Source: an uncultured Salinarchaeum sp.
GTDB lineage: Archaea > Halobacteriota > Halobacteria > Halobacteriales > SKNY01
Length of the DNA stretch: 53,070 nucleotides
Assembly: GCA_964489365.1 (NCBI GenBank)
Contig: CAZAYR010000002.1
Coordinates: 1-53,070, forward strand
Direction of reading: 5' to 3'
In this document: piece by piece, positions 28,476-28,739 of the stretch
Layout of the letters: the number at the start of each line of letters is the position of its first letter
Numbering within the stretch: the first letter of the stretch is position 1
Notes under the pieces: generated by a model
Told to the model about the DNA's origin: nothing
Seen by the model: the letters and a program-made list of their open reading frames with translations, nothing else
Database searches by the model: none
Made by a program: the position numbers and the translations under genes

Positions 28476-28739
28476 TCAGCAACCGCCGCTGGCCGCCGGC
28501 ATGACGCGGAGGACGGAATCCGCGCCCAGGCTGGCGTCGAGACTGTCGACTTCCTCGCCATCGACGAAGACGTTGATATATTCCCGGATATCGCCGTTTT
28601 CGATCACGCTATCGCGGAGTGCGTTCCCGTGTTCGGCCGCATGGGCCTCCAGGGCTTCGCCGACGGTTTCCCCGTTCACTTCGACGCGTTCGGCACCCCC
28701 ACCGCCGGCCAGCACTGCCGGGACCTTGATCTCGGGCAT
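28476..28739 (-). CDS. MoaD/ThiS/SAMP-like beta-grasp sulfur-carrier/ubiquitin-like protein, C-terminus ...SGG-C
   Basis: 87 aa. VEVNGETVGEALEA...INVFVDGEEV...LRVMPAASGGC* resembles haloarchaeal SAMP1/MoaD, with one extra Cys after the di-glycine. Start at ATG 28739. The longer 114-aa version adds an Arg-rich extension. Confidence 0.8.
   Translation of the reverse strand: MPEIKVPAVLAGGGGAERVEVNGETVGEALEAHAAEHGNALRDSVIENGDIREYINVFVDGEEVDSLDASLGADSVLRVMPAASGGC

Follow-up and report, generated by a model that had tools for sequence, protein, structure and literature searches.

In Mycobacterium tuberculosis, the cysteine synthase CysM joins the thiocarboxylate of the small carrier protein CysO to aminoacrylate, and the resulting CysO-cysteine adduct is hydrolysed by the JAMM protein Mec+ (PMC3227635). 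Carriers that are encoded with a C-terminal tail and accompanied by a JAMM protein are known from other bacterial pathways. For QbsE, which ends in -CF, and QbsD (thioquinolobactin), as well as for CxnE and CxnF (chuangxinmycin), removal of the tail before the E1 step has been stated or proposed (PMC5925218), as it has for MetO and Mec in the homocysteine route of Streptomyces (bioRxiv 10.1101/2024.10.14.618325). A bacterial operon type, 4c, combines genes for ThiS/MoaD, E1, JAB, and cysteine synthase, and a coupling between sulfur transfer and cysteine production was predicted for it (Iyer, Burroughs and Aravind 2006; PMC1779556). In archaea, according to a survey of ubiquitin-like protein (Ubl) systems, linkage between JAB and Ubl genes is rare (PMC2948915). 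The JAMM protein HvJAMM1 of Haloferax volcanii cuts a linear fusion of SAMP1 (a small archaeal modifier protein, SAMP) and MoaE exactly after Gly-Gly, both in vitro and in vivo, and thereby activates molybdopterin synthase (PMC4443979). Here, we analysed a 53,070-nucleotide stretch of DNA from an uncultured Salinarchaeum sp. (assembly GCA_964489365.1, contig CAZAYR010000002.1, positions 1 to 53,070 of the forward strand; hereafter, the window), in which a gene for a CysO-like sulfur carrier ends with a Cys codon after Gly-Gly and lies next to genes for an E1, a JAMM protein, and a cysteine-synthase homologue. The best explanation of the locus, which we regard as probable on sequence comparison, is that the carrier is translated as an inactive pro-form, trimmed by the JAMM protein, and used in a thiosulfate-to-cysteine route.

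The carrier gene and its product

The carrier gene is an open reading frame (ORF) on the minus strand, starting with an ATG at 28739 and specifying a product of 87 amino acids. The last five codons, AGC GGC GGT TGC TGA, read S-G-G-C-stop, exactly as had been reported in the original prediction, and give the protein the C-terminus MPAASGG-C. The two features concerned are as follows.

28476-28739, minus strand: carrier with a predicted CysO/SAMP-like ubiquitin fold, pro-form ending in PAASGG-C (Pfam ThiS, AlphaFold2/Foldseek, and 94 orthologues)
28476-28487, minus strand: Gly-Gly codons (28482-28487), Cys codon TGC (28479-28481), and stop codon TGA (28476-28478), by direct reading

The product matches Pfam ThiS (PF02597) with 27.5 bits (gathering cut-off, 22.5). 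Because this cut-off is passed and at least 94 orthologues share an invariant PAASGG motif, the ORF can be regarded as a real gene rather than a chance reading frame. The SAMP1 equivalog model (NCBIfam NF041918) gave 45.1 bits, below its cut-off of 60, and the archaeal MoaD model of NCBIfam was also matched at a level below the cut-off. At the sequence level, Amycolatopsis CysO, H. volcanii SAMP1, and M. tuberculosis CysO resemble the carrier to about the same degree. The AlphaFold2 model, for which 50 orthologues served as input, has a predicted local distance difference test (pLDDT) score of 81.5, with values below 50 for the final three residues. When this model was searched with Foldseek, M. 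tuberculosis CysO in its complex with CysM (3dwg_C) was the top match, with a template modelling (TM) score of 0.84, followed by A. orientalis CysO (4n6e_B, TM 0.82) and then SAMP1 (TM 0.71). In its predicted fold, the carrier is thus nearest to CysO, and the model depicts a genuine ubiquitin-fold carrier.

The tail after Gly-Gly among orthologues

A database search yielded 94 orthologues of the carrier (53-75% identity), all of which are haloarchaeal. The PAASGG motif is invariant among them, and invariance does not extend beyond Gly-Gly. Residues beyond Gly-Gly are present in 75 orthologues (80%), and the remaining ca. 20% stop at plain Gly-Gly. The tail consists of one residue in 32 of the 75 tailed orthologues and of 2-50 residues in the others. 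Its first residue is most often Arg (39 orthologues), followed by Thr (8), Ser (5), Gly (5), Gln (4), and Cys (3). Apart from this preference for Arg at the first position, the tail sequence is not conserved. Since tails follow the invariant PAASGG in 75 of 94 orthologues, the tailed pro-form is a property of the carrier family, and what was observed in the window, a coding sequence that continues past Gly-Gly, can be extended to the family as a whole. The original prediction had made the conservation of the ending among orthologues a test of its reading. In this respect, the pro-form stood, as the orthologues end mostly in GG-X rather than in plain GG, but the Cys did not, being lineage-specific.

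Tail codons were compared in a second set of 67 species-level genome loci that includes the window. A single-Arg tail was found in 39 loci, and a tail is absent in six. Among the 67 loci, the Arg codons at the first tail position are CGG (25), CGA (13), CGT (3), CGC (2), and AGA (1). At least eight genera have Arg as the first tail residue, specified by five different codons, which suggests some selection for Arg. Of the first residues other than Arg, most (Gln, CAG; Trp, TGG; Cys, TGC; Gly, GGN) are a single base change away from an Arg codon. A single-Cys tail occurs in three loci, namely the window, a Halobacterium metagenome-assembled genome (MAG), and the isolate Haloparvum sp. PAK95. In all three it is encoded by TGC TGA, which is one transition from the CGC TGA found in Halobellus. 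The nearest relative of the carrier, which is 87% identical and encoded in the same gene order, ends with GGT CGG TAA, i.e. GG-Arg. Because tails are general among the relatives and usually consist of Arg, as in the nearest relative, the Cys of the window is most simply interpreted as a drift variant of an Arg codon (CGC to TGC) that is incidental and non-catalytic. The identity of the tail residue appears to be loosely constrained, with Arg as the usual cap.

These data bear directly on the suggestion that the terminal Cys is functional and retained in the mature protein, acting in sulfur transfer as a persulfide, a thioester, or a cyclic intermediate. The only point in favour of such a role is that Cys, which haloarchaeal proteins rarely contain, occupies the first tail position in 3 of the 75 tailed orthologues. 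On the other hand, Arg takes its place in the nearest relative and in 39 of the 67 loci, the invariant part of the protein ends at Gly-Gly, and E1 chemistry is well established to need a free glycine carboxylate. The proposal of the original prediction that the Cys may itself take part in sulfur transfer therefore found no comparative support, and a sulfur-relay role of this residue was rejected because the Cys is not conserved; a retained, functional Cys is highly improbable in our view. An assembly error in the Cys or stop codon is an even slighter prospect. The genome is a MAG of 279 contigs, with 87% completeness and 6.6% contamination, so that errors are conceivable, but TGC TGA was found independently in the Halobacterium MAG and the Haloparvum isolate, and a GG-X pro-form resembling those of the relatives would remain after any plausible correction. 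As two other genomes share the ending and tails are the rule in the family, such an error would leave the conclusion unchanged.

Tails and JAMM genes among SAMP1-type proteins

Tails are not confined to the carrier family. Approximately half of the sampled haloarchaeal SAMP1 orthologues are tailed, with sequences that include SVGR, SAGR, AVGR, and S. In this sample, SAMP1-type orthologues (FPPVSGG) carry a tail in 15 of 28 cases in genomes with a JAMM1 gene, mostly from one genus, and in none of seven cases in genomes where no JAMM1 was found (one-sided Fisher p = 0.012, uncorrected for relatedness, a value that overstates the evidence because the sampled genomes are related). Pro-form Ubls thus appear to be common in haloarchaea, and the pattern would fit tails that are tolerated, or used, only where JAMM1 can remove them.

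The genome of the window itself encodes two further proteins of interest in this regard, both outside the window. One is a tailed SAMP1-like protein ending in FPPVSGG-TRSLPRA (contig C141:56-325, minus strand). The other is a MoaD-like Ubl (contig C142:659-916, minus strand) in which FPPVAGG continues in frame into a domain of ~85 residues ending in AMRAGG; this protein possibly represents a Ubl fused to a member of the family of small GG-ended proteins that Makarova and Koonin described beside MoaD-like genes in Halobacteria.

The variability of the tails also raises the possibility that they are functionless, i.e. that stop-codon drift is tolerated because a JAMM protein cutting after Gly-Gly is always present, and that trimming occurs but does not serve as a regulatory or activating checkpoint. 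The very variable length and sequence of the tails, the untailed 20% of the orthologues, the prevalence of first residues one base change away from an Arg codon, and the occurrence of the sampled SAMP1 tails only in genomes with JAMM1 are all in line with such drift, whereas the recurrence of Arg in at least eight genera with five codons suggests that some selection operates. We regard drift as a possible but not a favoured account of the tails. It overlaps with the trimmed pro-form that we prefer, from which it differs only in the physiological importance of trimming, and the confidences placed in the two are not additive.

The sulfur gene cluster and its conservation

The genes for the carrier, the cysteine-synthase homologue, the E1, and the JAMM protein all lie within 27447-30165 of the window, and genes related to sulfur import and relay are located next to them. 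In addition to the carrier gene, the following features were assigned.

24981-26210, plus strand: YeeE/TsuA-type sulfur (thiosulfate) transporter (Pfam Sulf_transp, 183.5 bits)
26280-26663, plus strand: SaoD/DsrE-family protein (NCBIfam NF040913, 185.6 bits; cut-off, 152)
26687-27019, minus strand: single-domain rhodanese, with the start inferred from orthologue length (Pfam Rhodanese, 69.9 bits)
27021-27320, minus strand: TusA/TsuB(YeeD)-like sulfurtransferase (Pfam TusA, 40.8 bits)
27447-28466, plus strand: divergent CysK/CysM-like pyridoxal phosphate (PLP) enzyme, convergent with the carrier gene across a 9-nucleotide spacer (Pfam PALP, 161 bits)
28740-28879, no strand: divergent intergenic region between the carrier and E1 genes (direct reading)
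28880-29731, plus strand: UbaA-type E1 adenylyltransferase lacking a rhodanese domain, divergent from the carrier gene (Pfam ThiF, 281 bits)
29728-30165, minus strand: JAMM/MPN+ metalloprotease of the HvJAMM1 (desampylase) type (Pfam Prok-JAB, 74 bits)

In the intergenic region, a run of seven T residues (28763-28769, carrier strand) is located 24-30 nucleotides upstream of the carrier ATG. In haloarchaea, a TATA-like element of a leaderless transcript would be expected at this distance, and we infer that the run is a putative promoter. The open frame of the E1 extends upstream to a GTG at 28802, but the ATG at 28880 is the probable start, being near the starts of the orthologues (~285 amino acids) and of the family profile; the longer ORF from 28802 would overlap the promoter region of the carrier gene.

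True carrier orthologues (>110 bits) were found in 15 of the 151 sampled Halobacteria genomes. In 12 of the 14 carrier genomes other than that of the window, the carrier gene lies beside E1, JAMM, and PLP-enzyme genes, usually together with TusA, rhodanese, and YeeE genes. The same cluster is present in most of the 67 named loci. The rhodanese gene keeps its place next to the TusA gene, and a DsrE-like gene is included in part of the orthologous clusters. The genera spanned include Halorubrum, Halobellus, Halolamina, Haloquadratum, Haloplanus, Haloparvum, Salinarchaeum, Halodesulfurarchaeum, Halovenus, and Natrononativus, as well as others. Linkage to the carrier gene is seen for the PLP-enzyme gene in most loci, where the two adjoin, and for the JAMM gene in nearly all loci examined. 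In a deeper clade (Halorutilus and its Halorutilales-like relatives), only the JAMM and carrier genes are kept, side by side. In locus L045 (G046), the PLP enzyme was matched in two pieces (6943-7482 and 7539-7958), which may reflect a frameshift or decay.

In Halobiforma haloterrestris (loci L010 and L063; 6280-8207 of L010), the cysteine-synthase homologue is replaced by a metallo-beta-lactamase (MBL)-fold protein and a Cys_Met_Meta_PP (MetY-like) enzyme. The replacement points to a variant of this system that would make homocysteine, and it has a counterpart in Wolinella, whose MetY is thiocarboxylate-dependent (PMC8191291). Around the nearest bacterial (Chloroflexota) relatives of the carrier gene, a 4-kb neighbourhood contained no E1, JAMM, or PLP-enzyme gene. 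Among the papers listed by our literature searches, none described a haloarchaeal CysO-type cluster, and such a pathway is likewise absent from a survey devoted to open annotation issues in Haloferax.

The JAMM protein and the E1: shared and cluster-specific components

The JAMM gene lies 989 nucleotides from the carrier start, which agrees with the distance of about 1 kb given in the original prediction. Its product has an intact metal site (E23...H82xH84x7S92xxD95) and passes the desampylase equivalog model of NCBIfam (desamp_Halo, NF041370) with 149.8 bits (cut-off, 130). HvJAMM1-type genes are present as one copy per genome in 117 of 151 Halobacteria. The cluster JAMM gene is the only HvJAMM1-type gene found in the genome of the window, and the same holds for four of the five carrier-bearing genomes that were probed specifically. 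In the class-wide scan, the single JAMM1 copy of most other carrier-bearing genomes is the cluster copy, and two genomes have a second copy. In Halorubrum genomes that lack the carrier, the orthologous JAMM gene stands alone or adjoins TusA and rhodanese genes. A dedicated Mec+-like JAMM paralogue was considered and rejected, as the cluster JAMM is the orthologue of the housekeeping JAMM1.

The E1 passes the UbaA equivalog model of NCBIfam (NF047750) with 477.7 bits (cut-off, 450). Each of five near-complete carrier-bearing genomes contains two UbaA-type E1s, one in the cluster (469-478 bits) and one elsewhere (470-523 bits). The E1 of the window is 73-78% identical to the cluster E1s, compared with 61-66% to the canonical UbaA proteins of five other genomes. 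Given this higher identity to the cluster copies, it can be assigned to the cluster-specific paralogue. A second E1 was not found in the genome of the window, whose assembly is only 87% complete. The presence of the sole JAMM1 gene in a sulfur cluster, while the E1 is duplicated, hints that carrier maturation or cysteine release could be a main job of JAMM1 in these organisms.

The 120 best database homologues of the PLP enzyme, the cysteine-synthase homologue, are all haloarchaeal. In carrier-bearing genomes, the cluster PLP enzyme is a third, more divergent CysK/CysM paralogue that exists beside two ordinary ones.

Proposed route and points that weigh against it

The substrate that ThiF/MoeB/UbaA-type E1s adenylate is a free C-terminal glycine, and the encoded carrier would therefore not be activated as made. 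In the route that we propose, the JAMM protein would first remove the tail residue and expose Gly-Gly, and the cluster E1 would then adenylate the carrier. Sulfane sulfur from imported thiosulfate, relayed via TusA and the rhodanese, would convert the carrier into a thiocarboxylate. The PLP enzyme would add aminoacrylate, derived from O-acetylserine or O-phosphoserine, and an S-to-N acyl shift would give carrier-Gly-Gly-Cys. Finally, the same JAMM protein would free cysteine and regenerate the carrier, as Mec+ does with CysO. In the genome of the window, the ribosomal product is covalently identical to the proposed final intermediate, carrier-GG-Cys. Maturation of this carrier would need no additional specificity, since its structure is that of the intermediate.

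Several observations weigh against this route. The tail appears dispensable, because about one-fifth of the orthologues end in plain Gly-Gly. The linkage of the JAMM gene could reflect sampylation rather than cysteine release, as the JAMM protein is a housekeeping orthologue. The E1 consists of a ThiF domain only, without the rhodanese domain of MoeZ-type proteins. The PLP enzyme scores below every NCBIfam cut-off for CysK and CysM, its best matches in the PDB are cysteine synthases of the CysK type, and M. tuberculosis CysM is absent among the 60 PDB matches listed for it. CysM of the Escherichia coli type is able to use thiosulfate directly; the PLP enzyme might for this reason not need the carrier and might use sulfide or thiosulfate as such.

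A different function for the whole set of genes also has to be weighed, namely that the carrier is mainly a protein modifier. It would then be a fourth SAMP with an E1 paralogue of its own, made as a pro-form like ubiquitin, SUMO, and NEDD8; the JAMM protein would act as both maturase and desampylase, and the sulfur genes would be targets or merely co-regulated. The scores of the E1 and the JAMM protein above the UbaA and desampylase equivalog cut-offs are consistent with such a function, as are the frequent tails of haloarchaeal SAMP1-type proteins and the dual role of SAMPs as modifiers and sulfur carriers (PMC4443979; PMC4197634). However, the predicted fold of the carrier is nearer to CysO than to SAMP1, the SAMP1 cut-off was missed (45 versus 60 bits), and across genera the carrier gene remains tightly linked to genes for sulfur import and relay and to a convergent gene for a cysteine-synthase homologue, in whose place Halobiforma has a MetY-like enzyme. 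We consider it unlikely that protein modification is the main function, and a JAMM-trimmed carrier of the cysteine route is the reading that we retain.

Within this route, the one-residue cap, which is mostly Arg, could be a selected lock that keeps the carrier from the two UbaA-type E1s until the single JAMM1 removes it, so that JAMM1 would gate both the entry of the carrier and the release of cysteine. This refinement is speculative, and we would put only little weight on it. If it were true, HvJAMM1-type enzymes would gain a primary metabolic role in haloarchaea, and a newly made carrier of the GG-Cys type would leave the ribosome already in the form of the final intermediate of the pathway.

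Comparison with known systems

The previously studied roles of UbaA- and HvJAMM1-type proteins in haloarchaea are limited to sampylation, molybdopterin synthesis, and tRNA thiolation. The cluster described here suggests tailed carriers and a carrier-cysteine adduct as physiological substrates of HvJAMM1-type enzymes, and it points to a pathway in Halorubrum and its relatives that would lead from imported thiosulfate to cysteine by way of a protein thiocarboxylate. Both suggestions are testable, since the cluster is present in cultivable isolates such as Halorubrum saccharovorum DSM 1137 and Hrr. sodomense. For the terminal Cys itself, the outcome is deflationary, as this residue appears to be an incidental variant.

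The locus resembles the CysO/CysM/Mec+/MoeZR system of M. tuberculosis in having a carrier with a predicted fold nearest to CysO, an adjacent gene for a cysteine-synthase homologue, and genes for a JAMM protein and a ThiF-type E1 in one cluster. Carrier-GG-Cys, moreover, is the last intermediate of the mycobacterial pathway, where it is hydrolysed by Mec+ (PMC3227635). The two differ in that M. tuberculosis CysO is encoded with a plain Gly-Gly end and the haloarchaeal carrier is tailed. The haloarchaeal E1 lacks a fused rhodanese, and the cluster has individual genes for a rhodanese, TusA, a DsrE-like protein, and a YeeE importer. The PLP enzyme constitutes a distinct haloarchaeal family rather than a CysM equivalog, and the JAMM protein is an HvJAMM1 orthologue. 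Operon type 4c shares the four-gene logic of the cluster but was described for bacteria only and contains an E1-rhodanese fusion.

In comparison with H. volcanii, where SAMP1-3, UbaA, and HvJAMM1 operate, the E1 and JAMM proteins of the window pass the same equivalog cut-offs, whereas the carrier falls below the SAMP1 cut-off and is more CysO-like, and the E1 represents an additional paralogue specific to the cluster. In the PDB, the alignments of the matched H. volcanii SAMP1 chains run to a Gly-Gly C-terminus, and to our knowledge the native SAMPs of this organism all end in Gly-Gly.

The closest precedents for the tail are QbsE/QbsD, which the original prediction had named correctly (PMC5925218), CxnE/CxnF, and MetO/Mec. 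These systems combine residues after Gly-Gly with a JAMM partner, as does the present locus with its non-conserved tail and a linked JAMM gene whose product has an intact metal site. They are bacterial, belong mostly to secondary-metabolite or homocysteine pathways, and have tails of 2-10 residues. By contrast, the present system occurs in archaea, in linkage with a cysteine-synthase homologue and thiosulfate-type import, and its tail is typically a single residue (Arg; Cys in the window). The arrangement known for JAMM-trimmed sulfur carriers of bacterial siderophore, antibiotic, homocysteine, and cysteine pathways is here represented in a conserved but patchily distributed haloarchaeal cluster. 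The haloarchaeal case thus joins a known kind of system, exemplified by QbsE/QbsD, CxnE/CxnF, MetO/Mec, and CysO/CysM/Mec+. What sets it apart is the archaeal host, the rhodanese-less E1 with separate relay genes, the use of a housekeeping HvJAMM1 orthologue, and the one-residue Arg cap.

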